Source of the DNA: Yuukianura sp. NJ FZ-2021
Lineage: Eukaryota
Direction of reading: 5' to 3'
DNA length: 64,000 nucleotides
Assembly (NCBI GenBank): GCA_046563655.1
Contig: CM102288.1
Location: 620,001 to 684,000, forward strand
Below the pieces are notes generated by a model, which ran no database searches, was not told where the DNA came from, and saw only the letters and a list, made by a program, of their open reading frames with translations. This document shows, in pieces, positions 852-44,200 of this stretch. The stretch's first letter is position 1. Every line of letters starts with the position of its first letter. A program made the translations under genes and the position numbers.

Positions 852-1669
852 TTACCTGTCAGAAATGACGTATTGGTGACTGAGTGTTTGCCAGTAGAAG
901 ATGATGCTGACAATACAGATCAACAGAAGTACTGGGATCATGATGAACGTTATGCACATTGCCGGTGCTGTGTTGAATTTGATCCAGCCCAACAGTACTA
1001 CGTCCACAATGAACAGGAATATTGACACTGAGTTGGCCAAAACCTTGAGAAATTACACAAACTTTTCGGCAAATACTTTAATTTTTTTTTAGAATTTGTT
1101 AAATTTTTACCCAAGCTAGGTCAATATAAAAAATGAGAAGATTGTGCGGTGACTGAGCGGCCAACTTGATAGAATTGACCTTCGCAATTGCTTCAATATG
1201 TGGAAGCAGACAAGTACAGATCATTATGGACTGAAATTCGAAAAACATAAAATTTTGAACCCGAATCTCAAAAAATTTCAAAATTTTCCAAAAATCTTAC
1301 CAACAAACAAGCACTGACGAGCAGCGATGTCGTAATTACAAAAGCCGACAGTAGGAACTCATTCGTGTCAGGTTGAATCTGCAGTTCAACCGTCGCTACG
1401 ACCGAGAATCCTGCCATTCTGAAAACCAAAATTTGAAAAAAATTCAAAAATCTGAAGAAAAAAAATTTCAAAATCTTTCTTTCAAAATATCTCCAAAAAT
1501 CTTACAGTGCCGCAATTTCCGTTACACCTTTGAGCTTTGCCTTGCTCAACTGCAGGCGTCTCCAAATCAATTGTTCAGGCTCCGTTTTGTCATCGTCTAA
1601 ATTTTCCACTTCCCGCCCCAATTCGTCCAAAATGTCCAGTCCAATGCCCCTGTCCATGTCCATTTTCAT
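852..1669 (-). CDS. Orai: Orai-family Ca2+ channel paralog A (4 exons visible; 3' end may continue beyond a last intron)
   Basis: GT-AG splicing gives WRRLQLSKAKLKGVTEIAALMAGFSVVATVELQI (TM1), FVITTSLLVSACLLSIMICTCLLPHIE (TM2), SPH..YIDLAWVLANSVSIFLFIVDVVLLGWIKF (TM3), IMIPVLLLI..FYWQTLSHQ (TM4). It ends at ISDR followed by AG|GTAACT, which is either a stop or a splice donor. Confidence 0.9.
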
Positions 1670-2446
1670 CCACTACACTGTCACTTCTACACTAATTGCG
1701 CAGATCCTGATTCTAACTTCTGCGCACCTCCACTTCCATCCTGTTGACCTCCGTGACCTCAGATTTAGATTTCCACTTTAGTAAAATTTCAAAGTCTCAA
1801 AATTCCCCTTGACCACACACTCAAACTCCGTCTTGGCTTTTCTACCAGGAAAAAACTGTAAATTGTCAAAATTGACAAAATAGAGCACGGTTGTGGTTTG
1901 TAGGTTAATTGACCATTAAATTCAAACTAAACTGCGCCTGTACTTAAGAAACAAACAAGACTCAAAATAAATGCAAAGTTTAGCTTAGAAGTTGAGTTCC
2001 GAATGATTCGTTTTAGGTTCCACTTGGACAGGGAGATTTAATTGTGCAGTTCAAGTGGAAAATAAAAGGAAGTTTTTATGTCCAAATTGTAAAAAGTTGA
2101 AGGTTCCCCGTGTGCTCACTTGTCTACACTTACTTTTAGTACTTTAACTTCCCTCAATTGCAGTATAACTTAAAAGTCTATAACCAAGGAGTAAGTCTAT
2201 AGTTATGTAAACTCATAGAATTACATAGTATATGAAAAAAAAGAACGAAAACCTAACCACAACTTAACAATAAAATGTTGTGGCAGTGCTGTTTAAACTC
2301 TCAATTTCAGCAGATCGGGACTTCAAACAGGAAAAATTGCTAAAAATTAGCAATTCAGAATTTAAAATCGTAAAAAGACAGCACTAAGTAAAGTTTAACA
2401 AAAGATTTAAATTTTTTCAAAATTTTAACATAGTGTTATGTTAAGG

Positions 2447-3349
2447 TCACGGCGGGACGTTGACAGTAGAGGCGTCGTCAGAGAGTTTCCGTTTCAGTTG
2501 ACCTTTTGACCTCACACTTCCGGATCGAAGATGCTCCAATGCAAATAAAGTGTCATCTTCAATGTCATCTTCGTTTGAATTACAATAGTCTTGGCCAAAG
2601 AGGCGTTTCTGAAGCAGTTCTCGCCAAAAGCGAATTGCAAAGTAAGCCATTAGGAGAATCGTGGGCGAGATGACGGCAGTTCCAGAAGTAGCCACAATTT
2701 TTGAAACGTTTTGAAATTTGATCCAAACGATCAGCATCATGTTGATGGTGAAGAGTACGACCGTGCCGGTACTGGCCATAAGCCAGGTGACCTCAAAAAA
2801 AAATGTTTAAAAATTTCTAAATTTCAAAATTTTCCAAAATTCTAATTCCTTACTTGTATAATGACCTGATCTAAGCGAGATAAAAAATAGAGCTGGTGGG
2901 ATTTGAACCTAGAAGTGAGTCCAGTTTCGACCAAAACGTTGTCCAGTTCCTCATTGGCTGTCATGAACGGAACAAGTGCTGCTGTGAACAAAATTACAAA
3001 TGCTGCCATAGAAGTTAGCAGAACTGTAGTCACTGAGAAGAGAGTTAGCAGCCAGGGGTCAGCCGTCTCGTGACCTTGGAGGTCAGCCACTGAAGACTAA
3101 AAAGTACAAAAGAGGCAGTTTTCTAAAAGAAGAGTTTTTAGAATAAAATTTTTAAGAATTTTGAAAAGTTACCATGCAGAAACCTCCAATGAGCGCCATG
3201 AGGCGAATGACCCCACTTAACTTTGCCTTGTACAGAGCAAAAGTTGGCTGCCGTGGGTGGACTGGAGGTGGGCCGTCAGGAACCTGAAACTCAAACTGTT
3301 CCGACCCACGTCCCACCGGAACAACGTCCATCCGAATAGAAATGCTCAT
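2447..3349 (-). CDS. Orai: Highly divergent Orai-family paralog B (3 exons: ~3173-3349, 2853-3096, 2447-2791)
   Basis: LYKAKLSGVIRLMALIGGFCM|SSVADLQ (TM1), WLLTLFSVTTVLL..LVP (TM2), W..TVVLFTINMMLIVWIKF (TM3), ISPTILL..FAIRFWRELL (TM4); four-TM spacing as in Orai and position inside the cluster. Confidence 0.8.
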
Positions 3350-3933
3350 CGTTTTCAAAATAAAACACGAAATGTCGACTGTTTTCAAATTGACACTCAC
3401 ACTAAATTCTCGGGGTTGTAACAACAAAAAAATTTGACAAAAATTGCAACTTTTTAGGAATTTTTTTTAGAATGGATTAATTTGGGAGTGTAATCAATTG
3501 ATTGCAAAGCTTTATCAGCTCAACAAAGCACAATTGATTCTGTCAAACTTTGATTTGTTCGCATTTTACAAAAAGAAAAATCGAGTCTGCTAAATATCAT
3601 TTGCAAAAAATTAAATTTTTTGAATTTAGAATTTGGAAAAGACTGCAGCTTTTTAATACAACTGTGTCGCTGTTCATGAGGGCGATTTGCGTTGGCACAA
3701 ATTGCAATTTCAATTTGTACTCTGTACTGTTTAAAAATTAAAAAAAAAAATTAAAAAAATAACCTTTAAAAAAAATATGTTTTCATGCTTCGTAAAACTA
3801 AAAGTAAAAATATAAATAATTTATTGCTCCCGCTAATATTTGTTTCTCCAACTTTAAAAAATAATTTAGTAGATTTTTAAATCTTTTGAGAGAACTAATT
3901 AAACCGTCATTTAAAAATATGGAGCTGCAGTTT

Positions 3934-4825
3934 TTATACATTATGAACAGCGTTACGTGCATACCTGACGGTTGTATTCCCTGAAGAAGCGGAAGCGATA
4001 GATGATGAAGTAGAACTAAGATGTCGGAGTGCCGCTGTCGTTTCAGCGACAGAGTCGTTGCTCATTGCTTGACCTTCACTGGCAAACTCCAGTTGTTCGT
4101 GCATCCTCTCAAGGTCATCGTACTTTTTTGAAAAGACGTTGTACTGATGAGAAACTATTTTCCGGTAAAAGACGATACCAAACACTAAAATGACAATGAG
4201 GACTGGAACCATGATGCACGTCGCAGCGTAGGCAGCGACCATTGAAAAAAATGCAAACTTGATCCAGCACATGAGGATAACGTCGAGTGTAAACAAAAAC
4301 AGCGACACCGTATTGGTCAACACCCAGCAGAGGTCAATTAGTCGAATCATGGAGTCATGGGGAGAAAGTGATACTTGAGACACAAGCGACATCTTGGACA
4401 CTGCACTAATGTGAGGCAGGATGCATGTTCTGCAAATTCAAAAATCTCAATTTTATTTTGACCTTCTGACAATTTTTTGAATTTCTACAGTTGAAATTTT
4501 TGAAAGTTGAGCTTACGAGATCATGACAGCCAGAAGAGAAACTGAAACGAGAAGCGACGTCGTAACTACAAATGCAGTCATCAGAGCGGGGTTGGCGTCT
4601 TCGTCATTGATTTGTAGCTCCACGGTCACAACCTAAAGAACAATTTTTTCAAAATTTTGAATTTTGGTGAATTTTGAATTTTAGGAAACTTACAACGGAG
4701 AATCCTGCAAAGATTTCAGCCATTTCTGCACAATTGGCCAATTTCGATTTACTGAGATGAAGTCGCCGCCATGCCAAGAATTCTGGAGTATTCATTTCAT
4801 CTTTGTTCAAACCATGAAAATCCAT
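3934..4825 (-). CDS. Orai: Orai-family paralog C (3 coding exons: ~4694-4825, 4517-4632, 3934-4429)
   Basis: AWRRLHLSKSKLANCAEMAEIFAGFSV|VVTVELQINDED, TTSLLVSVSLLAVMISTCILPHI, SPHDSMIRLIDLCW..LFTLDVILMCWIKF, IMVPVL..FYRKIVSHQ. The start codon is tentative because a splice acceptor lies just upstream. Confidence 0.92.
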
Positions 4826-5589
4826 TTCAAAACTGAAAAAAAACACTAGTTTAAAAAAAGAAGACACAATTTCACAAAATTTTATCAAAAATTGTAATTT
4901 GAGATGTTTCCAAACCCAGCTGCGTAAACACTTAAAAATTTAGGCTCCACTAATTCCCTCAGAATCCGTACTTCAATTTAGTCAATCGCAATTGAATCGG
5001 TCATTTTTTGTCGAAACTTTTCACTTTTGTGGTTTAGCACTAAATTGTCGCTTGTAAAATTCAGTCTTGAATTCGGTCAAGTTGTGTTTCTTCCGAGAAC
5101 TTGCAAAATATTTACAAAATACGGAACTTTTTTCAGTTTTATCTAATCCCTGGCCTAGAGAACGTCAGTAGCTCAAATCCACTTCTGTTTTCGTCTAACC
5201 TTTTTAGTCACCTAAACTTCAATCTGCACAAGGTTTTGTGTAAATGACTTTTAATACGCCTAATCTCAAACACATTGTTCCCTCAACTGGAGGCTCCAAG
5301 ATAAGCTACCGACGTTAACTACAACACACTTAAACATTTAAACTTAATCTAACTCAATTTCCATTGCAATCACACAAAAAGAAAAAAAACTCAAAATGTC
5401 TTTACAAACTTTAGAAAAAATGGAGGTCAAATGCACAGTTTATAAAGATTTGTAAACATGTAGCTCATCGATCATTTAAAAGTGTCGAAAACATACCAAA
5501 AGTTTGGAAATTTTGGAACTTCGAAAGCACTTTTTACCAAAAATTGCTGCTAAACTACAAACGAAATTTTAGCAAAAGCTCGGGAGATT

Positions 5590-6903
5590 TTAGACGTTGA
5601 TGATTGGCGGATCCAACTGACGCTTCATTTCTTCTAGTTCTTGGCATTTCAAGTCAGAGATCATGTACTGATGGTGCACAATTCTTCGGTAAAAAACGAC
5701 TCCGAACAGACAGACACCGAATAGCACAGATGACAGGAGAACTGAAATTGCAAATTTTACAAAATCCGTTTTTGAAACTTTTTTTTTGAAAGTTTTTTTA
5801 TGTAAGTTACTTGTAGCACACCAACTTGCTACTTCTGAAAAGTAGGTGAACTTGATCCAGCAGAGCAGAATGACATCGAGTGTGAAGAAGAAGATGGACA
5901 AAGTGTTGCCAAGGACCCATGACAGGTCAATGAGGAACATCATGGAGTCATGCGGAGACTCATGTGCTGAGGAATACGGTGCTAACTTGGCCACCGTCTC
6001 AATATGTGGCAGAATACAAGTCTACAAAAAGTTAAAAACAGAACATGTTTAGATGTTAATGATTTTCATGGTTGGCATTTGTTGTACTTTGGGTATACAA
6101 CTTACGGAAATCATCACTGCCAACATGGTCGTGCTGTGGAAAATTCAAATTGAAAACATAAGAGAAACAACATGATTTTAGAATGCCAACATTGAATTTT
6201 ACAAAATTAACTTGCGAAAATGCAAAGCCATGGAGTCCTTTTTACTTACCAAACGAGAAGTGATGTTGTGATTGTAAATGCACACAAGAGGTAAGGATCT
6301 GGATCGTCATTGATTTGCAATTCCACAGTGGCTACCTTGCAATTCCAGAAAAAAATCATAATTTTTCTCAGAAATTGCGAATTTTGAAAAATGCAAATGA
6401 AATTATGTGAGAATTTGAATTTAGTTGGCGACATACCACGGAGAAGCCGGCCATACTGTTTCACATGCACCCAAAAACAAAAAAGTATAAACATAGAACA
6501 AAATTTTGGCGAATTTGAAATTGCAAAAAAACTTACACTGCTGATATTTCAGTGATTCCTTCCAATTTGGCTTTGCTGAGATGAAGGCGTCGCCAAGCTA
6601 AAAACTCCGGCGTGTTCACATCCATTTGCTCCGTGTCTTCAAACTGGAACTTCTGGCTCTAAAAAACGCAAAGTTAATTAAAACTTAAACTAATTAAAAA
6701 CCATAAAGTGAATATTTGAATGTTCATACCGGTGCCGGGAGTTCTTCGAGCTGAAATGTCACCGAACCACAGTGGGGACTTTCGTCTGCAATACTCCATG
6801 ACACCGATCGTGGCTCCGAAGCTACCCGGGTAGCGACATTCGTCGGACTTGTCGGGGGACTCGGATTTGGCGACATTGACGGAAGACTCTGCGATGGTCG
6901 CAT
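5590..6903 (-). CDS. Orai: Orai-family paralog D, copy 1 (7 exons including 19-nt and 28-nt micro-exons)
   Basis: Pro/Ser-rich N-terminus MRPSQSLPSMSPNP; AWRRLHLSKAKLEGITEISAV|MAGFSV|VATVELQINDD; TTSLLVC|TTMLAVMIS|TCILPHIE; ESPHDSM..FTLDVILLCWIKF; FYRRIVHHQ..ELEEMKRQLD. All junctions are GT-AG and phase-compatible. Confidence 0.93.
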
Positions 6904-7355
6904 GATGTCACCCTTCCTAATAATGCTCTGACACAAACTAAGAACTGCGAAAAATTCAGATACTCTCACTCAGTCAAACTTGCAAAAAACTTTTCGCATA
7001 ATGAAGAACTCTGCGTACCTCGAAAATTAGAGTTCGAATTTAGTTAATTTATGAAAATGAAATTAGAAAACAAGATCATGTGCGAAAAAGAATGACAGAA
7101 GACGAAAGTAAACACATTCGCTTGACAGGAGATTTTGCAAGAAGCAACTATTCTGCATCACAACTTTTGTTACAACACAGAATTAATTTTAAGTCAATCT
7201 TAACTTACATTCGTTTTGTCAACATTTAATAAACAAGAGCGGACAGATTTAAAAGTAAAATTAATAAAAGACTAGAAGCATGGTTTCGAAAAATTATCAC
7301 TTTAAAATTCTTACTTCACTAAAAATTAACGTCAAATAAATTACTTCATTTAGCC

Positions 7356-8883
7356 TTATTCACTCAACGGAAAAAAATAGTTTTGTTCAAAAATTCCTTC
7401 CCCACTGACTCCACCGCTGTAAGTAACGTTGTAGTTGTAAATGAGATGCTGCGATTCATCTTCGTAGGATCCAAAAGTATGACGACTCTTCCGAGCTAAA
7501 GACAAATCAAAAACAAATCTAGTAAAGTAAATGCAAAATTTCAGTTTTATCCCATACGAATTTGTAGAAATTTACCTTGGTTGACCAAAAACTGTGCAAA
7601 ATATTGGCCGATGAGGACAGCTTCACTTGTATGCGGAATGTTTTTCTTCCAGCTCCACTCGTACATGTTCTTCTCAGGGTGGAATTGGATTCCAAAGAAT
7701 GGATACTTTTTAGATTCTATGCTGGATACAAACAGAGGCTCAAGAGAGTCATTGGACCATGACAAAACGTTGTACTGCTCTTCTATTGCACTGTGCTGTT
7801 TTAGTGTGTCCTTGGTTACACAAAAGTGATGAAAATTCGATGCTAATGGTTGGTTAGCCAGCAGCTTCAGAACGGTCGCTGGAGCGCGCTTGAACAGTTC
7901 ACTGTATTTCGCCACTAAAAGTCACATCAAAACCGGTCACTTATTAAACAAATGTTTTCCAGGTCAATCAATTACGTTTTCAGTTTTTCAAAGACATCCA
8001 CTGTAGACTTACACTGTGTAAACTGTAAAGTGGTGCTGATGTTGTAGGAGTTGCAATTGGCCAGTACTTCTGTTCCTAGAACTTCGTAGATCAAGTACTC
8101 GAAGCCAAGACATGTTCCCCAGACGGGGAAGTGATCTCCGTTGTCATTGGCTTCTCGGGCAAGAGTCATCAAGTACTTGGCAGCACTCGCATATCCAGAT
8201 TCATTGAAATAAACTCCTCCCCCGGGCAGAAGTAACCTAAACAGAGGAATCAATGTATTTTCACTATAAGTTTTCTGGTTTCACTATTTAGCACAATCAC
8301 CCATTGATTCCTTGAAATATTTGATCGTAATATTCCCGCGTCTGATTAATCCTGTAGTAATTCCAGGTTCAAAAATTAGATTCAATTAAAACTTCTTAAT
8401 TTTGTTTCAATTTTACTCACTTTACGGGCACGACTCTGCCACCACCTCCTTCCACAAATTTAACATAGGATGCTGCAATATACGAAAGTGAGGGTTCGTT
8501 GACCTTGACCTTCCCGTCATTGTGGTACTCCTGAGCCAGTATTCCTGAAAAAAAAAATCAAACGGTTATCACTATTGTGAAATTGTGATCAATTCCATCA
8601 CTTTTTAAAAGATTCAATTTTGACAAACAGCTGATTTTTCCCACACTAAAAAGAAACTTTTTTTTGCTACTAACTAACCGATAATAGGTCGGTCATTCCA
8701 AAAGCCTCCTGCTTCTGCTGAAGCAAGTTCAAGGTCAGCGTCTTGCGAAGTAACAGTGTAAATGAAGGCAATACCAATTGCCAAACTAAAAATTACTACA
8801 AATGTCAGTGCCAAAAGTGCTAAGAATCTGAAAGAACAAAGAACGTTGTCCTCGTCCTCACGCTGAATTCTGTCTACTTCCAT
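7356..8883 (-). CDS. GGH: Gamma-glutamyl hydrolase (peptidase C26), copy 1, with N-terminal hydrophobic segment
   Basis: NDRPIIGILAQE, SYIAASYVKFVEGGGGRVVP, LLLPGGG, FPVWGTCLGFE (catalytic Cys), NFHHFC, YPFFGIQFHPEK (catalytic His), LIYNY; 6 exons. Confidence 0.93.
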
Positions 8884-9544
8884 TATGTCCAACCAATTGC
8901 TCCAAGTAAATTGACCCCGAACTTTGACTTTTCTCCAAAGGTTGAAGGATTTTCATTTTCAAAAAACTTGGTTTAAAAAATCAACCAGAACGTCAAAAGG
9001 TTACAGTTTCTAAAGAAAATGTAAACCCGATGAGAATAGGAAATTAAAATCTCTACAGAGATTTTTAGAGCTAAAAATGCCTCCCCTCCCCATTCCCCAC
9101 CCACTATCAGTAGATTATACTGCCAAAATATAAAGGCGATGAATCAATAATCTCTGCAGTATGGCTTTGGATGAGCGCTTTTTGCACAGATTCGCAATTC
9201 GCACATTTGAGCGTCAAAAATGACTCAAATCCAACAGCGAATTGTCTAATCTAATCAAGACCTTTGACCTTATTTAGTAGTGAAAGCCAGATCCTGATAA
9301 GAATTTCACAAAAAAATTTAAGCAAACTGCTGTTTTCATTATTTCGGCAAACGTTTATGAATTATTAGCAAAAATATCTTCAAGAGTTGGATTGAAATTA
9401 TTGAAACTTGCTAGAGAAATTACTTATGTATTATGGAATCTATGAAATAAATCAAAAGTTAACTTACTACGACGTTTTGTTCCAGTAGGAGAAAATCTTG
9501 AAAATTGAAAGTCGATGTTTCTTCGTGATCTTTGTAAAGATATC

Positions 9545-25396: not shown

Positions 25397-28193
25397 TGCA
25401 AAAAAAAAAATTCAAAAATTTTAAAATTTAAAAAATTTTTGAACTAGGTGTGCGTGGCTAACCATACGCTTTTATTTCAAAAACGAACCAAAAATTTTGA
25501 TACTAATTCTTTATGTTTTTTTTTTTGTTTGAGAGAATTCTGATGGCGGAGGCATGAATTCCCTTTGGATTGGTTGTTATTTTGTTTTTGTTGAAGACAA
25601 AAGAAAATTGGTATAAAAATTACATATGTTGGGATGAACAAAAGGAAAAAATGGAAGAAGTAAACTCGTTTCGCTTGGAGAGAATGGGAGGAAATTATAC
25701 GTTCAGTTCCCTTGTTCCTATCGACAGTTTCTTAACAATTTCTGAAACTCTTTCACAAAAAACACAAACCATCATTATCTTCCTCCATCACTTTTTTTTT
25801 GTTCTAAAAATCAAGGCTACAATCAAAGTTTTAGTCTCTCAAACTCTAATCCAAAATTACTTCCATAGTCTCACAACTAAAAAAACCAAAAGAGTGTTCT
25901 GATTTTTCAAAATTTTGGGGAAAAAAAACATCAGAAGAAGTTAAAAATCATTTTTTTGGAAGAAAATTTCAAAATTTTCTGAGTAGTTTTTGAACAATTG
26001 AGTTGGAATTTGGGATGTGAAAATAAGAGTGAAATGTGAAAAGAGAGCCGCACCCTGTGTGCCATGATCCTTAATCTAGAATCGATGAGAAATAAATTGA
26101 GTCCATAAGGTAAAAGCATACGTTAGGCTAGCGTCGTTAGGTTGTGCCAGTAGGCACGTGTAGCCTTTAAGGTTTTCGTTAGGTTAGTTGGGTTAGTGTT
26201 TTTGTATCTCGCTTTCTCCCCTCCGAACATTAAGGAGTAATTAAGAATAGAAAGAGAGGATTGACAAAGGGCCCAGCGACGCCTTCATGTTATTCCAACT
26301 CCCCCATAGTGCTTTCTCCACAAGACGCCTAGCCTAACCAACCTAACTGTTAGCCTAACCAAACCTATTTTCAGCCTGACATGAGTTTCAACCCAGGTAG
26401 ATTTCCGATTTCCCTGGGAAAAGACCCGGGAGAAGGCCAAAACTCCCGGGACACACGCCGCTTATCAACTCATTCCACATAAACGATCTACCCTTTCTCT
26501 CTCAACATGTCGTAGTTAGGTTGTTAGCCTAACAAAATCCAATAACCTAACAAATCCTAACATTTCCAACCTAAATTCTACGACATAAGGGTAGTTTTCT
26601 ACCTGTGAGTTTCGTGGACTTGTCAATCCCTTGATCCCCCTTCAACTCCTGCTATGTAGAATATTAACTCTTTGAGTCCAAATGAACCGAAAAAAGTAAG
26701 AGTAAAACCGAATTCGGGGAAAAGCGGACTTAGTCACTTCCAGTTTTAGTTTTTGTGAACGTGGTTCGCCTACGGGGGTGAATAAATCAAGGGAGTTATG
26801 TTGATTTGTGTTATTTGACAAGTAAGGGAGGAGGGTTAATCTTTTGACTCTGTTAAATTCTGCTTTTACTTATTTTGGACTCAGCTTAAGCTCTAAACTT
26901 GAGTCAATAAATTTCAAAACACTTGACAGGTCAGGTCACTTCCATCCAGGAGCTGCAAATAGGCTTAACAACTTACAACCAATCAGCTTCCACAAAAAAA
27001 CTCAATTTTCAAAACATAAACATAAAATAAAAAGCAGATTTTCAAAAAAAAAAAGCCTCAAGAAATTTAATCACGAAAATACCGTATTTCACGGCGTATA
27101 ACGCGCGCTGAAATACTATGATTCCTGGAAAATATAAATTAAAAAAAAATTTTTTTGCAGAGAGTTTGAATAGTTCCTCCAGCTTCAACTTTGGTGCTAA
27201 CTGCTTAGTGTATGTTGTTAGCGCTAGCGGTAGCTTCATTTTTTGAAACTAAAGTTCGTGATAGCGTGATGTTGAGTATTTGGTTGCCGAAGGTGTTGAC
27301 GGCGTGTCTTTCAAATATTTCCCAGCACGACTTCAGCCAAATACGAAACTCAATTCATTCCCGTTTTAGTACCAAAAGTAGAGAGCTTCTTAATTCAACT
27401 TTGACCTCATGAACTTACGCATGCAAACTCCATCTCAAAACCTGTTGAAATTCAGTCAATACTTTTCAAAATTTGGAATTTCCCGTTTTTCTATTCCAAT
27501 TTTTCGGCGCAGACTGTTCCTTCTCGGTGGTACAATTTATCGGAGCAGCCTGTTGTCAAATTAAATCGTCCAATTGAAAAAGTAAAGAGATAGGTCATGC
27601 TGTGCTGTCAATTGTTTAGTTTTATTAAAGTAAAAACTGAGTTCCTGTCTTAAAACTGGAGAAATTTGTAGACTGAAGTAAAAAGTTGATTTAAAGCGGG
27701 AGTAATTTTCGCATGTCTTTTTCTCTTTTAAAGCTGAGTGCGGAATCGTTTTGTAATTGTGAATAAAATATAGTTTTGTGTTGGTAGTGTGTAAATCGAC
27801 GAGTTGTCTTTCGTTGTTGCTTAATTACAGGTTACACACCTCTCATTATACTTCACTCTTCTTCCACTTTGTGAACCACAATCAATTCGTCTTCAAGCAA
27901 AAGTAGGAGAGAGCGACCAAGATACCATGAACACCAACGTATTTTTACAAAAATTGAATTTTTTTAAACTCATTTTGGAACTAATTTCTCATGATCTTCT
28001 TTAGAACTCAAGTGGAACAACGAGGAACTGAAAATCCAAGGTGTTTAAACGGATTTTCTAAAATGGAATTTGAAAAGTTGATCCAGAATGACTCAAGGTC
28101 TGTCATTTTAAAAGCTTGAGATTTAGATTGAGTTTTTGTTTTAAAAAGTTAAGCTTAAGTTGTCACTGTAAGTTACAAAAATGGGGAGCTGTT

Positions 28194-29542
28194 TTAGACG
28201 TTGATGATTGGCGGATCCAACTGACGCTTCATTTCTTCCAGTTCTTGACATTTCAAGTCAGAGATCATGTACTGATGATGGACAATTCTTCGGTAAAAAA
28301 CGACTCCAAAGAGACACACACCGAATAGCACCGAGGATAAAAGAACTGAAATTGCAATTTTAAAAAATCCGTTTTTGAAACTTTTTTTTGAAAGTTTTTT
28401 TTTATGGAAGTTACTTGTAGCGCACAAACTTGCTACTTCTGAAAAGTACGTAAACTTGATCCAGCAGAGCAGAATGACATCGAGTGTGAAGAAGAAGATG
28501 GACAAAGTGTTACCGAGGACCCATGACAGGTCAATGAGGAACATCATGGAGTCATGCGGAGACTCATGTGCTGAGGAATACGGTGCTAACTTGGCCACCG
28601 TCTCAATATGTGGCAGAATACAAGTCTACCAAAAGTTAAAAACAGAACATGTTTAGATGTTAATGATTTTCATGGTGGCATTTGTTGTAGTTTGGGTATA
28701 AAACTTACGGAAATCATCACTGCCAACATGGTCGTGCTGTGGAAAATTCAAATTAAAAAAAAGGAGAAACAACATGATTGTAGAATACCAACATTTACAA
28801 AATTAACTTGCGAAAATGCAAAGCCATGGATTACTTTTTACTTACCAAACGAGGAGTGAAGTTGTGATTGTAAATGCACACAAGAGGTAAGGATCTGGAT
28901 CGTCATTGATTTGCAATTCCACAGTGGCTACCTTGCAATTCCAGAAAGAAATCATAATTTTTTAGAAAAATTGTGAATTTTGAAAAACGCAAATGAAATT
29001 ATCTGAGAATTTGAATTTAGTTGACGACATACCACGGAGAAGCCGGCCATACTGTTACACATGCACCAAAAAAAGAGTATAAACATCAATTTTGCATGAA
29101 CAAAATTTTGGCGAATTTGAAATTGCAAAAAAAACTTACACTGCTGATATTTCAGTGATTCCTTCCAATTTGGCTTTGCTGAGATGAAGGCGTCGCCAAG
29201 CTAAAAACTCCGGCGTATTCACATCCATTTGCTCCGTGTCTTCAAACTGACATTTTTGGCTCTAAAACACACACAGCTAGTTAAAAGTTAAACTAGTTAA
29301 ATTGAAATTAGTTAAAAAAAGTTTAATTTGTTAAAAACTATACAGTTCACACATTGGAATGTTAATACCGGTTCCGGGAGTTCTTCGAGCTGAAATGTCA
29401 CTGAACCGCAGTGGGGACTTTGGTCTGCAATACTCCATGACACCGATCGTGGGTCCGAAGCTACCCGGGTAGCGACATTCGTCGGACTTGTCGGGGGACT
29501 CGGATTTGGCGACATTGACGGAAGACTTTGCGATGGTCGCAT
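28194..29542 (-). CDS. Orai: Orai-family paralog D, copy 2 (intact, same exon structure)
   Basis: Same splice sites and micro-exons as copy 1. The protein is nearly identical (e.g. W>L in ASWCAT, F>C in SQKFQ) despite many synonymous differences. Confidence 0.92.
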
Positions 29543-29986
29543 GCTGTCACCCTTCCTAATAATGCTGACACAAACTGAGAACTGCAAAAAATTCAGATAC
29601 TCTCATTCAGTCAAACTTGCAAAAAAGTTTTCGCACAATGAATGTAACAGAACTCTGCGTATCTCGAAATAGTTAATTTATGAAAATGAAATTAGAAAAC
29701 AAGATCATGTGCGAAAAGAATATGACAGAAGATGATACCAAACGCTTTTGCTTGACACTGACACATTTAGGAAGGAAGCATTCTGTATCACAACTTTTGT
29801 TACAACACAGAATTAATTTTAAGTCAATCTTAACTTACATTCGTTTTGTCAACATTTAATAAACAAGAGCGGACAGATTTAAAAGTAAAATTAACAAAAG
29901 ACTAGAAACATGGTTTCGAAGAATTAGCACTTTAAAATTCTTACTACACTAAAAATTAACGTCCAATAAATTAAGTTAGCTCAGCG

Positions 29987-32833
29987 TTATTCACTCAACG
30001 GAAAAAAATAGTTTTGTTCAAAAATTCCTCCCCCACTGACTCCACCGCTGTAAGTAACGTTGTAGTTGTAAATGAGATGCTGCGATTCATCTTCGTAGGA
30101 TCCAAAAGTATGACGACTCTTCCGAGCTACAAATCAAAAACATATCTAGTAAAGTAAATGCAAAATTTCAGTTTTTATGTAAATCTAATTAGAATTTGTA
30201 GAAATTTACCTTGATTGACCAAAAACTGTGCAAAATATTGACCAATCAGGACAGCTTCACTTGTATGTGGAATGTTTTTCTTCCAGCTCCACTCGTACAT
30301 GTTCTTCTCAGGGTGGAATTGGATTCCAAAGAATGGATACTTTTTAGATTCTATGCTGGATACAAAGAGAGGCTCAAGAGAGTCATTGGACCATGACAAA
30401 ACGTTGTACTGCTCTTCTATTGCACTGTGCTGTTTTAGTGTGTCCTTGGTTACACAAAAGTGATGGAAATTCGATGCTAATGGTTGGCTAGCCAGCAGCT
30501 TCAGAACGGTCGCTGGAGCGCGTTTGAACAGTTCACTGTATTTTGCCACTAAAAATAACATCAAAACCGGTCACTTGTTATTAAGAAAAATATTTTCCAG
30601 GTCAATCAATTTGGTTTTAGTTCCAATGCTCCCATCTGAGATATTCAAATTAACTTACACTGTGTAAACTGTAAAGTGGTGCTGATGTTGTAGGAGTTGC
30701 AACTGGCAAGCACTTCTGATCCAACAACTTCGTAGATCAAGTACTCGAAGCCAAGACATGTTCCCCAAACGGGGAAGTGATCTCCGTTGTCATTGGCTTC
30801 TCGGGCAAGAGTCATCAAGTACTTGGCTGCAGTCGCATACCGTATTTTCCCAAATAGTACACCTGGTGTACTAATTTTGTTTTCGACTTCTGGGGGTGGT
30901 GTACTATTAGGGACCTGGTGTATTATTAGAGACGGTGTACTAATTAATTTTTTAAGAATGAGGATTTTATTCTTAACTAAAACGTTCAGGAATCAGGAGA
31001 AAATAATTTCTAAATTACTAAAAACTACTCCACTTCGATTTCAGAATCCGTATCCACAGTGTCCAACAATGAATCCCAGGCAATCTTCACCCATTTAGTC
31101 ATCAATTTCTTGGATGGAGCCTTAAAAATTAAGAATTTATATAAATTCTATTTAAAAAGAAACCTACGAAATTATTAGTTATGATTTACCTTCAAATACC
31201 TTACGCTGGCGTACGACTTTACTTATAAATGTAGCCAAATCAGCAACTTTCGAAAACAATTGATCCGGTTCCTTTTGTCCTACTGTAGTCCTCCGTCTTA
31301 ATGATAATGAGTGTCTTTTGAGAAAACGATTCAGCCAGCCCAAACATGCGACGAACTTCGTTCTGTTTCCGTTATCCAATGTTGGGAAAATTCTCTTCGC
31401 CTGCTCTTGAATCGAACGCCGTGAGACCCTTAACGATTTGTTTCGTTGTTCCATAATCCAGTAAAAGAGTGAATCATCCAACTCAGGTATCAATCGTTTC
31501 CGTCCACCGCCGATCAACCTTTTGTGTTTGATCTTGGACGATTTCACGTTTGACACTGTAAACAAAATACTGTTTCAGTATGAATGTAATAATGAGGAAA
31601 AATTTTTTTATTCACAATAATTACTCACCTAAAGCATTTTCCTTTCTAATCCATGTCCGAATACTCTGTCGATCAATGTTGCATTCTTTAGCTGCTGCAG
31701 AACTTGATTTATCCTTGGCCAATTTCAATACTTTCAATTTGAACTCCAGGTCAAATGATCTTTTTTTGTTGGGAGACATTTTAAGTAAGAATACGAATGT
31801 TAAGTAAAACAATTTGGAGAGAAGTAACGTGGAGATAAACACAACAAATGAAGAGCTATAATATTACTAGCTCAACTACCTTCTCCGGGTGTTATACTCC
31901 TAATGCTACATTACCAAATACCCTGGTGTACTATTAGAGACCTGGTGTACTATTTGGGACGGTGTACTAATTAATTTTTCGGCCCCTGGACCTGGTGTAC
32001 TATTAGGGACCTGGTGTACTATTTAGGTATGGTGTACTATTAGGGAAAATACGGTATCCAGATTCGTTGAAATAAACTCCTCCCCCGGGCAAAAGTAACC
32101 TAAAAAGGGGAATCGATGTTTTTTATTAGATTCACTAAAAAATTTCAAGTTTCACTATTTAGCGCAATTACCCATTGATTCCTTGAAATATTTGATCGTA
32201 GTATTCCAGCGTCTGATTAATCCTGTAGTAATTCCAGGTTCAAAAATTAGATTCAATTAAAACTTCTTAATTTTATTGCAATTTTACTCACTTTATAGGC
32301 ACGACTCTTCCACCACCTCCCTCCACAAATTTAACATAGGATGCCGCAATATACGAAAGTGGTGGTTCGTTGGCCTTGACCTTCCCGTCATTGTGGTACT
32401 CCTGAGCCAGTATTCCTGAAAAAAAAAATGAAACGGTTATCACTATTGTGAAATTGTGATCAATTCAATCACTTTTTAAAAGATTCAATTTTGACAAACA
32501 GCTGATTCTTCTCACACTGTAAAGAAAAAGAAACTTTTTTTTTGCTACTAACTTACCGATAATAGGTCGGTCATTCCAAAACCCTCCTGCTTCTGCTGAC
32601 ACAAGTTCAAGGTCAGCGTCTTGCGAAGTAACAGTGTAAATGAAGGCAATACCAATTGCCAAACTAAAAATGACTACAAATGTCAGTGCCAAAAGTGCTA
32701 AGAATCTGAAGGAACAAAGAACATTGTCCTCCTCCCGATGAATTCTCTGTCTACTTCCATTATGTCCAACCAATTGCTCCAAGTAAATTGACCCTGAACT
32801 TTGATTTTTCTCCAAAGGTTGAAGGATTTTCAT
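29987..32833 (-). pseudogene. GGH: GGH copy 2, interrupted in a coding exon by a 1.2-kb pogo-type element
   Basis: Same exons as copy 1; the exon encoding LPGGGVYFNESGY/ATAAKYL is split at the Tyr codon by the element at 30840-32054. Confidence 0.88.
30840..32054 (-). mobile_element. Internally deleted pogo-family DNA transposon (Brinker-like HTH + CENP-B HTH retained, DDE core missing)
   Basis: 24-bp TIR CCGTATTTTCCCWAATAGTACACC; TA TSD (30838-39 and 32055-56); the empty site is visible in duplication copy 1 near 8192. Subterminal GGTGTACTA repeats; ORF MSPNKKRSFDLEFKLKVL..IRTW / GGGRKR..LDDSLFYWIMEQRNK..FVACLGWLNRFLKRHSLSLRRRTT. Confidence 0.95.
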
Positions 32834-33406
32834 TTTCAAAAAACTTGGTTTAAAAAATCAACCAGAACGTCAAAAGGTTACAGTTCCTAAAGAAAAATGT
32901 AAACCCGATGAGAAAAGGAAATTAAAATCTCTAGAGAGATTTTTAGAGCTAAAAACGCCTCCCCTCCCCATTCCCCACCCACTATCAGTAGATTGTACTG
33001 CCAAAATATAAAGGCGATGAATCAATAATCTCTGCAGTATGGCTTTGGATGAGCACTTTTTGCACAGATTCGCAATTTGCACATTTGAGCGTCAAAAATG
33101 ACTCAAATCCAACAGCGAATTGTCTAATCTAATCATGACCTTTGGCCTTATTTAGTAGTGAAAGCCAGATCCTGATAAGAATTTCACAAAAAAAATTTAA
33201 GCAAACTGCTGTTTTCATTATTTCGGCAAAAGTTTATGAATTATTAGCAAAAATATCTTCAAGAGTTGGATTGAAATTATAGAAACTTGCTAGAGAAATT
33301 ACTTAAATTAGATACGAATTAATTAATGCACAAAAACGAAAAATATAGCTTACTGTTTTTCCGGGGAACATGAGCATAACTTTGTTAAGATTTCATTACG
33401 ATGTGA

Positions 33407-36961: not shown

Positions 36962-38573
36962 CAGGAGAAGCTGTAAAATACAAACTCGCTGTGATTGGTT
37001 GTTTCACGAAATGAAAGGACGCCGATACCGTAAATTTTCAAAAAGCAACAAGGCGAGCACAAATTTATTGATTTGATTTGTAATTTAGACGCTTAACCAG
37101 TTTTCTCGCTTTTTCTGAAACAATTAACAATTGTTTCTTTCTTGACCTCATTCCACGATTGACACAGCATTTCTATCCCATCGGAAAGTTTCACCTCACT
37201 CAAAACTTTACCAGAATCCAAAATTTTAACAATTTGGGAGGAATAATTTTGTTTCAGGGACTGAATAATTCCGGAATCCAGTGGTTGACTCTTTGAGGTC
37301 GTATTGGGTGGCAGAAATAAAAGTTGTAAATTTGGGAAAAATTCCTCCTCAACCTCATGTCCGCTAAAATTGTCCAGTATGAGCAGTATCTTCCTTTTCT
37401 GGTCTGCCATGTTTGAATTTAACTTTGCCAGCCACTCCGAAAACAATTCCCGTGTCATCCAGGCTTTTTTTGACGAACGATACGTAAATTCTGAGGTGAA
37501 TTTAGTGTTTTTGAAACACCTCGGATTTTTTGACTTCCCGATAATTAGCAGTGGCTGTTTCTGGTCGCCAGTTTTGTTACAACAGATTAAGAAAGTCACT
37601 CTTTCCTTTGAAGCTTTCAGGCCAAAGCACTTTTTTCCTATGCAAAAAAAAAAACAAACATTAACTTAATTCCACGAATTAGCTTAAACGTAACTCAGAA
37701 CTTAAAGAATAACAGTTTAAAGTGACCTTCCCACCTTTCACGTCAAACGTCGTGCCGGGTAGTTTTTTGAAAAAAAGCGCTGACTCGTCGGCGTTGAAAA
37801 CATCCGAATCATTGTAGTTTTGAGTTGTGGGTACTAAAACGTTCCGTTTCCAGTTGTCCAGGTTTTCGAGGTCAACGCTCAGTTCCTCACCGCAAATTCG
37901 CTTATGGGATAGGTTGTTCCTTTTCTGAAAACTATCGAACCAACCGTCAGAAAATTTCTTGTTCCCATTTGGATCCAGCATTCTAGCCTTTTCTTTAATC
38001 AGTGGACAGGAAAGCGGAATTCCTTTTGCTCGTTGTTCGGTAATCCAGGTCATAAGTAATTCATCCAGTGCTTTTACCTTCGCATGAACAACAGCCTTCC
38101 TCTTCTAATAAAAAACAAGAGGAACATTGCTCAAAAATCAAAAAAAAAATCGGCAATACTAATTATCGTAGATTATGTAAAACTACGTATATTTAAAAAA
38201 TTTACTAACTTTTGGATTCCCCTTGAAGTTTTCCAGTTCATCTTTCTTCTTAATCAGTAGGCTCAATGTCGACTTAGCGATAGAATATTTGGTACAGATG
38301 TCTTTTCGCGGGATATTGCCAACTTCTGCCAGTATTTTTCTCTTTGTAAACACAGTGGGACTTTTAACTTTCGGCATTTTTAATTAAGTAAATGTATTTA
38401 AACAAAATACCAGACAACTAAAACTTAAAGGGTAAGGTCAGAACGAGAACATACGTTCGTTCTGGAAAGAGAAAAAAACCAACGGAAACTGTTCCCTCCA
38501 AAATTTTGAATTTTACGGTATCCCGCCACGGAGGGAAAGTAGAAAAAAAGTTTGTATCTTACAGCTTCTCCTG
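36962..38573 (-). mobile_element. Full-length Tigger/pogo transposon (1612 bp)
   Basis: TIR CAGGAGAAGCTGTAARATACAAACT with TA TSD on both sides. Confidence 0.95.
37093..38377 (-). CDS. Tigger-type transposase, 3 exons (38210-38377, ~37735-38104, 37093-37637), open frame
   Basis: N-terminal HTH (YSIAKSTLS), CENP-B HTH (WITEQRAKGIPLS..FSDGWFDSFQKR) and catalytic DDD triad: NADES, LILDNFSGH, LPPNTTSKSQPLD (31 residues between D2 and D3). Confidence 0.92.
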
Positions 38574-38886
38574 TACTGCGGTAGACAATATTTACTACTA
38601 TTTTATTTTTAAGACTTATTTTTAAGACTTAGCGAGCCGCTCGCTCTCAACAATTAGACTCTGAAAATATTAAAGTGAACATGACGTAATTGGCCCAATT
38701 GATTCGGAGTCTTTGTCAACGTTTTGATGTTTCTGTAAGTGTGATTTCATCCTGTCCGGGATTCCTGCATGTCTCCAATCACACAACTTCGAATTTGCCC
38801 AGTTCAAGGTCAAAATCGTTCCAAATCGGATCTCTGACTCGTGGCATTTCAATAACAGCCAGTTAAAACAACAGAAAGAAAAGCTA

Positions 38887-39837
38887 CGAAGAATATCCTG
38901 GTATTTCTCGAGCAGACTGCTCGAAGAATATCCTGGTATTTCTCGAGCAGACTGCTCGAGAATTATCCTGGTATTTCTCGAGCAGACTGCTCGAAGAATA
39001 TCCTGGTATTTCTCGAGCAGACTGCTCGAGAATTCTCCTGGTATTTCTCGAGCAGACTGCTCGAAGAATATCCTGGTATTTCTCGAGCAGACTGCTCGAA
39101 GAATATCCTGGTATTTCTCGAGCAGACTGCTCGAAGAATATCCTGGTATTTCTCGAGCAGACTGCTCGAGAATTATACTGGTATTTCTTGAGCAGACTGC
39201 TCGAGAATTATCCTGGTATTTTTCGAGCAGACTGCTCGAGAATTATCCTGGTATTTCTCGAGCAGACTGCTCGAGAATTATCCTGGTATTTCTCGAGCAG
39301 ACTGCTCGAGAATTATCCTGGTATTTCTCGAGCAGACTGCTCGAGAATTATCCTGGTATTTCTCGAGCAGACTGCTCGAGAATTATCCTGGTATTTCTCG
39401 AGCAGACTGCTCGAGAATTATCCTGGTATTTCTCGAGCAGACTGCTCGAAGAATATCCTGGTATTTCTCGAGCAGACTGCTCGAGAATTATCCTGGTATT
39501 TATCGAGCAGACTGCTCGAAGAATATCCTGGTATTTCTCGAGCAGACTGCTCGAGAATTATCCTGGTATTTATCGAGCAGACTGCTCGAAGAATATCCTG
39601 GTATTTCTCGAGCAGACTGCTCGAGAATTATCCGGGTATTTCTCGAGCAGACTGCTCGAGAATTATCCTGGTATTTCTCGAGCAGACTGCTCGAAGAATA
39701 TCCTGGTATTTCTCGAGCAGACTGCTCGAGAATTATCCTGGTATTTCTCGAGCAGACTGCTCGAGAATTATCCTGGTATTTCTCGAGCAGACTGCTCGAA
39801 GAATATCCTGGTATTTCTCGAGCAGTCTGCTCGAGAA
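38887..39837. repeat. 35-bp minisatellite, ~27 copies, with internal palindrome
   Basis: Unit ATCCTGGTATTTCTCGAGCAGACTGCTCGA plus AGAAT or GAATT; head-to-tail with no unique spacers. Confidence 0.97.
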
Positions 39838-40265
39838 AAAACCGAAAAAATAATCATCTAAATCACTGCTCTTTTGTTATTTTGGACTTCTCCCGCTCCC
39901 CTGACTCCTACGCTGTCTCCCTCCCGCGTAAAATTCAAAAGAATGAAAATTTCGAAAATTACAACCCCTCTGAAAATTACGTAACTTACGTACGTAAGTT
40001 ACGTAAGTTACAGGACGTAAGTTACAGCCTTCGAACCCTGTAATAAACCGAAACCGGCTTTTCAAAACTAAACTGCTGTCGGTTACTGTCGCGGTGGAAA
40101 ACTTCCTCCACTTATGTAATTCCAAAATCTTTACAACAATAATAAGACTGCTCAAAACTCTTGAAACATTAGTCATACTTAAACTCCCAAATTAAATCTT
40201 TGTTCTATTTATTTTACCAATTGGATTTGCAAATTGGAAATGCAATTTCAAGTAAGCTATGACGT

Positions 40266-41240: not shown

Positions 41241-44200
41241 CTAACTAGCGAGGAGTTGTTGACGGAGGACCTTGATTTTTTGTGCAAAAAATCCTTCCAG
41301 AATGTTAGCTGACTTGAAGAACTGAGACTCGGGTTGATTAAAGTAACGACAGTTTTCAAAGATCAAGGACATGTCGCGTATGAACTCTGGCAGGCGAGTG
41401 TACCGACGTTGTTCCACCCGTCGCTCAACTTCACACAAATCTAAACACAAAACGACATTTCCTCACTCCATCAACATTTGCATGTGTAAAATGTAAAATT
41501 CAAATGTAATTTCCTACCCATTGGATCTTTGATGACACGAAAGTAGTTGGGTGCTACACTTGCATCCACCGGTTTCCTGAACGGAGTTGCAGACTTGTGT
41601 GACTTGATTTGCTTCACAAGTTTTTCCAAATGATCAAAATCGTCTGGTCTGAGAGACTGGGCGTTGAGACGATTCAAGGCCGTCATTGGATCACAAGTTT
41701 TACACACAAATTGATCCATTTTGTCACCTTCAATAGGCAGAATTCCTACACATCGTCCATGGAGCCAGTCATCGCACTTGTCACAAGCAATGTAAAACCT
41801 GAACATTTTCAAACAACTTTTTAAAAACCCAATCCCATCTCACTGTTTCAGTTTTAAAAAGTTGAATCTTACTGTGATTCGTCGTAGGGTTGTTTACAAA
41901 TACAGTAAAGTTGAACAGGAACTGGATTCTGACATTCCAGGCAGATATACTCCGGAAGGATGCGTGACATTTCTTCCGTGATCCCCACGCATTCTCCATG
42001 GTACCACTTATCACATTTGTCACAGCCAACGTAAAACTTGTTCCGATCATAAGGTTTCTGGCAAGTACAAAACAATTCTGCTTCTTTCTTTCTGGATTTC
42101 GCCTTTCTAGCTTTCCCCGCTTTTCCGGATACTGGCAAAGATGCTCTTCCTTTGGACGTTTTCATCACTGGTCTTTTCTCACTCGAATTCGGCTTCTAAA
42201 AATTCACAACAAAAATTAAAAAATCACACTTCTGAACACAACTTTTTCAGTTCTTAAAAATAATTTACCGGTGCTTTTTTATCTGCCTCTGGACTCTCCT
42301 CTGACAAATCTTCCTGGCTCTTCAATTCTTCCATGATTTCAGCCTACATTCAAAAAGTTTTTAAAAAATCCACAACAACTTGAACTTTTAGTTCACAAAG
42401 ACAAGTCTTACTCGAATTTCAATCAGAAGTTCCTTGTCCAGCAAATCTCTCTTCTTGGCCAAATCCTTCTTGAGCAATTCCTTGTGTTTGTAGAGACTCT
42501 GTAGAGATTTTTGAAACGCCGCCGTTGCCGATTTCCCTGCCTGTCCAGCTCCATCGCTCTTCCTTCTCGTAGTTTTGGGTGCAGGAGTTGAAATTGCTGG
42601 AACTGGAAGTGGTGCTGACGCTTGCTGAGTTTCAATCGGTGGATTTCCAGCGATGATATCCGGACTCAGCCTCAAACTGTTGTGAGTTGACGTGGGAGGG
42701 GCCGTTGGACTTGAGGATTCGGAGGCTGAAGATGGTGATGCCATGATATTCAAAGGAGGACCAGCAGACTCATCTCCTGGAGCCACAGAAGTAAGCACTT
42801 CTTCGCCAGCCATCTCCGGAACTCCTATTGGCTCTGGTTCCGCTATTCAAAATCACAAAAAATCATACTTGTAAAACAATCACAAAATGAATTCTAACAA
42901 TTCTTAATCAACTTTCAAAATTTAGTATACTTTTTTCCAGTACAAGCGAAACAGAATGCACCAGCACCAATTAGTATAAAATACATCATAACACGAGTAG
43001 CCAAATAACAAAACATAGCCAAAAGTCCAACTTTCTACATAAAAAGCACATCCAAATCCAAAGCATTTATTAATATTTATAAGACTATTATATATTTTTC
43101 ATTTTGAAATTGACTTAAAGTATAAAAAGTTTTTGAGACTATCAACTATTATAGTCTTTCCTTAATTCATTAAATTTTAACAACAAATATTGTCTCATGA
43201 CCTTAAATATAAAATTTCAACTTTAACTATAAAAACCACTCCCAGAATTTCTAGGAACTTCAAAATCTAAAAAATCAGACTCAAATTCGAGGAACATCTC
43301 TCTGTTTTTAACTTTCTAAAAAAGGCCTTCTTAAATATTTGTAAAAAGTGTTGTTTTTGTTCAAAATTTCGTTAAATAGTGTTGAGAAGGATGTCCGTTA
43401 CTCTGTTTCTCTGTCTCTCCGTTTAAACCCTCTGCACGCCCTCCCTTTCGGTTCAGAATCATCATGCGGCCGGATTGAGCTAGAAAGAGATCAATCCGTT
43501 TGTTAACTAACTCATTAAATCCACAAATTCAAAATTCTATCTAACAAATTTACTGTTTTTGATTGAATTTTAAATTTTTTGAAAAAGTTCTGAACCGAGA
43601 TTTCTCTAAACTGTAAGCGTCTTTTAGCCTCAGCGATAAGCGAAAGCAAAACGACACATATTCGCATATTTCTAAGAAGCAGCCTACTACTTGACCCCTA
43701 GCGTCACTTCCCCTAAACTATTTCTATATTTTAAATAAATATAAATATATTATAAATATATTTTAATTAAAAAACTTACATTCAACCAAATCCTGAGTCA
43801 GGACGAACCGGGCCTCGGCTTCGGATTCTTCATACTCATGGGGTGGTGTTGCCAAGATCTTTTCTGGCGCAGACGCTGAAACTGCTGGCAATTGTGAAAA
43901 TGACGTCACTGGAATGTCGTTCACTTTTCGTTTCTTTGGTGACGGACTTCTCGTTCGCAGTTCACCGCTCACAGTTCTTGGTCTCTTAGCAACAGCATTG
44001 TTTCCAGTTGACGAAATAGTCACTTCCTCAGCCACTCCCATCGTCTCAACTGTTCCAAAATCCTCCATCATAGTACTTCCAATCACCCCTCCGTCCACAG
44101 TATTCTGCTGGATACTTCCAATTTCTGCAGTATTTTGCTGGATACTTCCAATTTCTGCAGTATTTTGCTGGATACTTCCAATTTCTGCAGTATTGTGCTG

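Follow-up and report, generated by a model that had tools for sequence, protein, structure and literature searches.

The Orai pore determinants (E106, V102, E190, H134, R91 and the C-terminal coiled coil) are known almost wholly from engineered human and fly mutants. In a 64,000-nucleotide stretch of DNA from Yuukianura sp. NJ FZ-2021 (contig CM102288.1, positions 620,001 to 684,000; the window), the first-pass annotation described an Orai gene, here called B, with a remodelled filter and gate and no STIM-binding tail. If these changes are real, and if the gene has been kept by selection, B would combine several of those mutant states in nature. The question is therefore whether B is an intact Orai gene, which of its residues truly set it apart, and how its product might conduct and be controlled.

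The window carries five copies of Orai, each of them on its minus strand:

856-1669, minus strand: paralog A, E91-type; four exons resolved, 3' end not located
2447-3349, minus strand: B; three exons, 254 codons plus stop
3934-4825, minus strand: paralog C, canonical E91-type, directly upstream of B; 3 exons, 247 amino acids
5590-6903, minus strand: paralog D, E91-type; 7 exons including a 19-nt microexon
28197-29542, minus strand: paralog E, a copy of D within a segmental duplication

The E91-type paralogs are presumably of the nematode ORAI-1 type, a label of our own. An acidic ring (E91) at the inner pore of an otherwise canonical Orai, as in A, C, D and E and also in the related proteins P0006, P0003 and P0017, is itself unusual. 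In paralog D, the microexon at 6437-6455 (part of TM1, MAGFSV) is needed for the frame and for the length match with P0006, and paralog E has the same microexon piece near 29030-29060. In D (5590-5741) and E (28197-28350), serine replaces the TM4 proline equivalent to human P245, a position at which any substitution is described as gain-of-function in human Orai1 (PMC7825772). The segmental duplication (5588-9426 and 28192-33305, 90-94% identity) holds an Orai copy and a glutamine-amidotransferase-like gene, and its second copy is broken at about 30839-32055 by an insert with a Tc5-type HTH open frame. A tandem repeat at 1-714 (period of about 131 nt, 95% identity) abuts the expected site of the last exon of paralog A. 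Further along the window, there are pogo/Tc5-type transposase frames at 37096-38104 and 31182-31574 (DDE_1 E 1.6e-45, HTH_Tnp_Tc5), and a satellite at 38883-39838 has a period of about 35 nt, matches its own reverse complement at about 81% and carries long open frames on both strands with spurious Pfam matches. Pieces of a large chromatin-remodeller-like gene (DDT, PHD, bromodomain) lie on the minus strand at 41474-52767, and there is a 1102-residue open frame without a Pfam match at 43766-47071. The other genes of the window (kinesin, PAS, DDT/PHD/bromodomain, class I tRNA synthetase and pogo/Tc5-type transposase) are those of an animal-type genome.

The gene model of B is as follows:

3349-3173, minus strand: exon 1, 59 codons; encodes a short N-terminus and the beginning of TM1 up to GGFCM, followed by the donor GTAACT
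3172-3097, minus strand: intron 1, 76 nt, GTAACT...TTTTTAG; phase 0, between the codons equivalent to human 101 and 102
3096-2854, minus strand: exon 2, 81 codons, beginning SSVADLQ; end of TM1, TM2 and extended loop 2, then the donor GTAAGG
2853-2792, minus strand: intron 2, 62 nt, GTAAGG...TTTTTGAG
2791-2447, minus strand: exon 3, 114 codons plus stop; TM3, TM4 and C-terminal tail

The strings that the first-pass annotation had quoted were all recovered on the minus strand where it had placed them: GGFCM and SSVADLQ at the ends of exons 1 and 2 that flank intron 1, LFTINMM in exon 3, and WRELLQKRLFG... in the tail. Both introns run from GT to AG; they are short and A/T-rich with TTTTCAG-like acceptors, features that look nematode-like.

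To ask what family B belongs to, searches for family, structure and folding used single exons or relatives. With 37.8 bits, exon 3 by itself passes the curated cut-off of 25 bits for Pfam PF07856 (Orai-1); exon 2 scores 15 bits and exon 1 has no Pfam match. Exon 3 also matches six distinct Drosophila Orai sequences in the PDB over TM3-TM4 (best 4hkr, E 2.4e-7), with LFTINMM aligned on fly LFLLEIA, and PDB searches with exon 1 alone or exon 2 alone returned no Orai chain. Among relatives of B, exon 2 of the ortholog described below matches 4hkr over TM2-TM4 (E 2.4e-13), the protein P0003 matches 6bbf with TM1 included (E 8.2e-18), and both P0001 and P0003 carry PF07856 in precomputed annotation. 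By the Kyte-Doolittle scale, B has four hydrophobic segments (residues 44-65, 73-108, 136-169 and 169-196), and TM3 and TM4 are helical in an AlphaFold2 model of exon 3. Taken together, these homologies identify B as the gene of a four-helix Orai-family pore subunit, and the match of its residues and strings to Orai is far beyond chance.

When we searched 1.84 billion representatives with exon 3 using HMMER, we found 16 proteins at E 0.001 or better, of which, judged by their sequences, 3 are near B, 12 are other Orai proteins or fragments and 1 is an unrelated repeat (P0007). The near relatives are 59% (P0001), 47% (P0002) and 42% (P0003) identical to B, and P0017 is 70% identical to P0003. 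A homologue search with exon 3 for longer proteins found none, a miss by its word index, since P0001 (298 aa) belongs to the collection searched. Homologue searches with residues 96-298 of P0001 returned only P0001, those with P0003 returned P0003 and P0017, and an Atlas search with P0003 found only the Orai family again. P0003 and P0017 each lie on a contig of about 915 nt with a whole uninterrupted frame of 221-225 residues, which would fit transcripts. We then placed these sequences in a maximum-likelihood tree of 18 rows, omitting P0001 (the same gene as the ortholog below), P0007 (unrelated) and the short P0005, P0010 and P0013. B, its ortholog, P0002, P0003 and P0017 form a clade, here called B-type, with support of 99/98 and a stem of 1.08; within it, a second long branch (1.07) leads to B and its ortholog, which group at 100/99. 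Outside the clade are the E91-type rows, together with another canonical group that has 100/99 support. In the alignment, the B-type proteins share an extension of loop 2 by about 9-20 residues, with loss of SPHD, and the sequence F(W/R)(R/K).L...LF directly after TM4, followed by an acidic run; KRK(L/I)SD is found in three of the five, and B itself has no WRR motif in its N-terminal segment. They have neither an ELE.M-type motif nor an (H/Y)(N/T/D)V end. On this phylogeny and alignment, B belongs to a distinct, fast-evolving Orai subfamily. We found no description of a B-type-like Orai subfamily in the full-text literature that was searched, a body of work that takes in few of the subscription journals.

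Scanning metagenome contigs with the B-type alignment identified one locus, L001 (3546 nt), the source of P0001. It carries a canonical C ortholog followed by the B ortholog, in the same order and orientation as in the window:

L001 952-1083, 1170-1285 and 1391-1874: exons of the C ortholog, upstream of the B ortholog
L001 2048-2221: exon 1 of the B ortholog, donor GTAAGT
L001 2287-2868: exon 2 of the B ortholog, acceptor CCCACAG

No ortholog of A or D was found in the short flanks of L001. The stored protein model P0001 (L001 1-2286) has exon 1 in the wrong frame and retains the intron, and its first ~95 residues are not real.

The residues at 102 and 106 depend on the TM1 register, which is set by the splice across 3097-3172. 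The ortholog has an intron at the identical TM1 site, also in phase 0, which settles the register as far as comparison can. An intron after the codon equivalent to 101 is common to B, the ortholog and paralogs C and D, and is absent from paralog A. The second intron of B is absent from the ortholog, whose continuous exon aligns without a gap across the junction of B exons 2 and 3. The ortholog also has the start codon of B and, like it, opens with MSI.I.M. Reading through intron 1 in frame meets a stop after seven codons. Two other splices were considered. An acceptor 7 nt downstream (TCTTCAG) used with the GTAACT donor shifts the frame and leads to an early stop, and an in-frame combination of a donor 11 nt upstream with the TCTTCAG acceptor would remove six TM1 residues and is unsupported by the ortholog. 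We prefer the first acceptor: the ortholog favours it, as do the shared intron position and the finding that variation in exons 2 and 3 (below) is synonymous throughout.

To see how selection has acted on B, we compared it with its ortholog and found a pS of 0.824 (saturated), a pN of 0.273 and a dN of 0.339; the TM core has the lower pN (0.209) and the tail the higher (0.447, with a dN of 0.68). The same comparison for C and its ortholog gives a pS of 0.737, a pN of 0.128 and a dN of 0.141. A proper dN/dS cannot be computed for B because pS exceeds 0.75; non-synonymous change is about 2.4 times faster in B than in C (dN 0.339 and 0.141), which fits relaxed constraint as well as it fits new function. 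A search of sequencing runs listed five that carry this sequence, all of DNA. We compared window positions 2300-7000 with contigs of two of them (X1, organism A, and X5, organism B), which gave 40 listed differences, with 216 more and 73 indels outside the list. All 13 listed differences within the B coding sequence are synonymous (two share one codon, which stays Leu), and seven listed differences fall in the 138 nt of B introns; outside the list, the B gene has up to 5 differences in the X5 piece on 2620-2990 and one each in X5 on 2961-3110 and X1 on 2884-3214. With synonymous sites making up about 24% of the total (S 179 of 738), 12 codons would all be synonymous by chance with a probability of about 4e-8. 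The X5 contig aligns to 2620-2990 and then, after 23 other letters, to 2961-3110 (it goes back 491), which could reflect a duplication of this region in organism B or else an error of assembly. As far as these substitution patterns tell, B is under purifying selection, intact and selectively maintained.

We next mapped the pore residues of B. Direct HMMER alignments to fly Orai (with P0003, ortholog exon 2 and B exon 3) agree with the MAFFT alignments; fly K163 corresponds to human R91 and fly H206 to human H134 according to the review PMC7825772, fly position 262 corresponds to human E190 according to PMC6647248, and the other human position numbers were counted along the ungapped TM1. The codons of interest are:

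3203..3205, minus strand: codon 49, R at human R91 / fly K163; the spacing from the AKL motif to GF is ungapped, as in fly Orai
3094..3096, minus strand: codon 60, S at human V102 (hydrophobic gate); S in the ortholog too
3082..3084, minus strand: codon 64, D (GAC) at the selectivity-filter glutamate E106; E (GAG) in the ortholog
3004..3006, minus strand: codon 90, A at human H134 / fly H206
2741..2743, minus strand: codon 157, N (AAC) at human E190 / fly E262; D (GAC) in the ortholog

We tabulated these positions over 18 rows (P0001 and P0007 were removed before alignment; P0005, P0010 and P0013, which lack TM1, were aligned and not printed):

Position 91: R in B and its ortholog and in the two canonical full-length rows, P0011 and P0014; seven rows have E (A, C, the C ortholog, D, P0006, P0003, P0017)
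Position 102: serine in B and the ortholog, against V in seven rows and I in four
Position 106: B has D and P0002 has Q; all 15 remaining rows having the column have E
Position 134: alanine in B, P0003 and P0017, and threonine in the ortholog; every E91-type row has S, T or C, and histidine is confined to the other canonical group (five rows)
Position 190: asparagine in B, P0003 and P0017; the ortholog and nine further rows, all E91-type ones among them, have D, three rows have E and two have Q

B retains the scaffold of the pore helix, with L95, G98, F99 and an acidic residue at 106, and it keeps the TM4 proline; the basic residue at 91 and the TM4 proline (P245) are both present in B and the ortholog. 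The first-pass annotation had noted that B keeps R91 unlike its neighbours, and we found E91 in all four neighbouring copies (A, C, D and E, the last read separately). The V102S and E106D substitutions also stand, by alignment to Drosophila Orai and to the relatives. At the hydrophobic gate, where V, I, L or M is expected, S is present in B and the ortholog and V or I in the other 11 rows having the column. At the selectivity filter, D replaces the canonical glutamate ring in B, whereas E106 is found in 12 of the 12 non-B-type rows having the column, and the B-type rows read E, E, E, Q and D. Two further substitutions hold against human and fly and need qualification against the neighbours. 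The alanine at 134 is not specific to B, as the neighbours already have S, T or C there, and the asparagine at 190, in place of the acidic TM3 residue (E190 or D), sets B apart only as a change from D to N, as the neighbours already have D. Set against the neighbouring paralogs, B thus stands out at 91, 102 and 106 and by the change from D to N at 190, and not at 134. Set against its ortholog, it stands out only at 106 (GAC/GAG) and 190 (AAC/GAC), each a single-base difference, and R91 and S102 are shared. D106 and N190, absent from the ortholog, are private to the species of B and may be recent and nearly neutral. Past the filter, GHETA(D/A)P in B and its ortholog takes the place of the stretches of D and E seen in the E91-type paralogs; with so few acidic residues there, the outer acidic vestibule of B is depleted as well.

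The C-terminal end of B differs from that of its neighbour C:

2450..2623, minus strand: post-TM4 tail; short helix, acidic run, weak short helix and basic KRKLSD motif (2477-2494)

In an AlphaFold2 model of B exon 3 (5-row alignment, mean pLDDT 62.8), we found helices at 2-29 and 31-66 and a weak helix at 81-88; past helix 31-66 the pLDDT is 53, 46, 50, 38, 42 and 42 per block of ten, and the post-TM4 helix stops 9 residues past the FWR motif. In the control, paralog C (5 rows, mean pLDDT 62.5), one helix spans 66-137 and continues 45 residues past FYR at 90-92; residues 91-120 have a pLDDT of 76, 71 and 74, and the value is at least 70 for about 28 of the 45 residues past FYR. Both models are of monomer fragments with shallow alignments, and the contrast between them supports a predicted TM4 extension cut to about 9 residues in B. 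The claim that B has no STIM-binding tail therefore holds in part. The canonical post-TM4 helix with an L273/L276-type coiled-coil motif is absent by alignment and by AlphaFold2 (no ELE.M-type motif, a short predicted helix), but the step from that absence to an absence of STIM binding may not transfer. In human Orai1, L273 and L276 are described as required for STIM1 binding (PMC7825772), and two reviews report that in C. elegans coupling of STIM to Orai loop 2 suffices for gating (PMC7825772, PMC6647248), so the missing tail alone is not decisive. Read from the alignment, the remodelled loop 2 and N-terminal segment of B point the same way as the missing tail, away from STIM coupling.

What would a pore with these residues do? 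Every functional step for B is an argument from human Orai1 mutations. V102A/C/G/S/T and H134A/C/S/T are described as giving constitutive, STIM1-independent activity, and V102A/C channels as non-selective unless STIM1 binds (PMC7825772); V102I/L/M are reported to remain store-operated, and E190Q/A to enlarge the pore and admit Cs+ (PMC6647248). Changing E106 or E190 is reported to lower Ca2+ selectivity and enlarge the pore (PMC2151669). The human rules are plainly not one-to-one here, since canonical-looking paralogs (A, C, D and E) already have S, T or C at H134, D at E190 and E at 91. Within these terms, the reading that we favour, with confidence about evenly divided for and against, is that B is a distinct, maintained Orai-family pore subunit with lower Ca2+ selectivity and a weakened gate, not canonically coupled to STIM. 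B would form a hexameric cation pore of the Orai type, either by itself or together with the neighbouring canonical paralog C. Relative to canonical CRAC channels, this pore would show lower Ca2+ selectivity and would hydrate or open more readily, and it would lack coupling to STIM through the coiled coil that canonical channels have at the C-terminus. The acidic run and the basic KRK(L/I)SD motif, both conserved, suggest regulation by a different route, such as phosphorylation. On this comparison with human mutants, B probably conducts or is controlled differently from a standard Orai.

A broader proposal, which we put forward tentatively and think somewhat unlikely, is that the B-type proteins are a second, so far undescribed, STIM-uncoupled Orai subfamily of this nematode-like lineage that forms a constitutively hydrated, poorly Ca2+-selective pore or supplies a subunit, cotranscribed with C, that turns some of the CRAC channels of the cell into less selective and differently regulated heteromers. 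The poorly selective pore would come from the polar S102 and the regained R91 together with, in this species, the shorter filter carboxylate and the neutral TM3 site. One point against the favoured reading is that P0002 has Q at 106, so the selected role of the B-type clade may not be conduction; Q at this position in human Orai1 is listed as loss of function (PMC6647248).

The gene order bears on a serious alternative to the favoured reading, that B is a modulatory subunit only, making no useful pore on its own but co-assembling with C (or A, D or E) and tuning the selectivity, gating or STIM stoichiometry of the hexamer, as mixed isoforms of Orai do in mammals. The first-pass annotation had suggested a leak-type channel or a modulatory subunit in which R91 might pair with E91 of paralogs A, C and D. 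The pair of C and then B is kept in two species with saturated synonymous sites, and the contrast between R91 in B and its ortholog and E91 in C and its ortholog is conserved with it. In L001, the C stop and the B start are 173 nt apart. AATAAA occupies 1946-1951 of L001, within this spacer, and a TTCCACAG acceptor precedes the ATG of the B ortholog by 14 nt, a layout that resembles a nematode operon. The spacing in the window is 584 nt, however, with about 440 nt from AATAAA to the candidate acceptor (itself about 29 nt ahead of the ATG), which is long for an operon, and the adjacency of B and C may just reflect tandem duplication. Variation of the filter residue within the B-type clade (E, D and Q) also speaks for a modulatory role, as does the lower Ca2+ selectivity reported for Orai heteromers (PMC6647248); on the other hand, the strongly conserved TM1 of B and its ortholog fits a working pore helix equally well. 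Weighing these sequence comparisons, we regard a B-C heteromer in which B only modulates as possible, though clearly less probable than a distinct pore.

Alternatively, B could be an ordinary STIM-gated, Ca2+-selective, store-operated channel whose odd residues are tolerated or compensated in the context of its lineage. The neighbouring paralogs too carry residues that in human Orai1 are gain-of-function or alter selectivity (S/T/C134, D190 and E91), D106 still gives a carboxylate at the filter, and in C. elegans, gating by STIM reportedly uses loop 2 and not the C-terminus (PMC7825772, PMC6647248). We nonetheless consider this account unlikely: the three cytosolic parts tied to STIM coupling, namely the N-terminal segment, loop 2 (about 9-20 residues longer, SPHD lost) and the TM4 extension, are all remodelled in the B-type proteins, and S102, D106, N190 and the depleted acidic vestibule together point away from high selectivity. 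B could also be a relic, a duplicate that is decaying or has lost its function and has kept an open frame by luck, as its faster evolution than C (most of all in the tail, dN 0.68), its loss of several canonical motifs and a filter residue that differs from the ortholog might suggest. This is very improbable, because pN lies far under the saturated pS and all 13 listed coding differences are synonymous, with the frame, start and splice sites intact in two species and the B-type clade old and well supported.

B, a gene kept by selection that combines several of the mutant states, belongs to a graded natural series, in which the ortholog has S102 and R91 with E106 and D190, and the sister proteins have I102, E106 and N190, with one Q106. 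With this series one can probe how selectivity and gating depend on context and whether an Orai can work without STIM, and the conserved pairing of B and C makes heteromer formation directly testable.

We compared B with known Orai systems. Like Drosophila Orai (4hkr, 6bbf) and human Orai1, B has the Pfam Orai-1 domain, four hydrophobic helices, the TM4 proline and WIKF in TM3, and its TM1 has R or K at 91, L95, G98, F99 and an acidic residue at 106. Unlike them, it has S102, D106, A134, N190 and few acidic residues past the filter, and it lacks the long TM4 extension and the coiled-coil motif; its loop 2 is about 11 residues longer than that of fly Orai, as judged from the ortholog alignment. 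With the E91-type paralogs (A, C, D and E, and P0006-like proteins), B shares D or N at 190, a residue other than His at 134 and, with C and D, the TM1 intron. In contrast to B, those paralogs have V102, E106, WRRL, the SPHD loop motif and E91, as well as a long TM4 extension with ELE.M and an (H/Y)(N/T/D)V C-terminal end. In mammalian Orai1/Orai3 heteromers, subunits with different acidic residues are reported to mix, lowering selectivity (PMC6647248); a B-C heteromer, unlike these, is suggested by conserved adjacency only. The engineered human Orai1 mutants (V102A/C/G/S/T, E106D, E190Q/A and H134A/C/S/T) are single changes, with or without STIM1, whereas B, known from its sequence, combines them in a background that is 60-70% different. 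B naturally has the same kinds of residue at the same aligned positions and, if the broader proposal holds in either form, would be a natural experiment that repeats the classic V102 and E106D engineering results.
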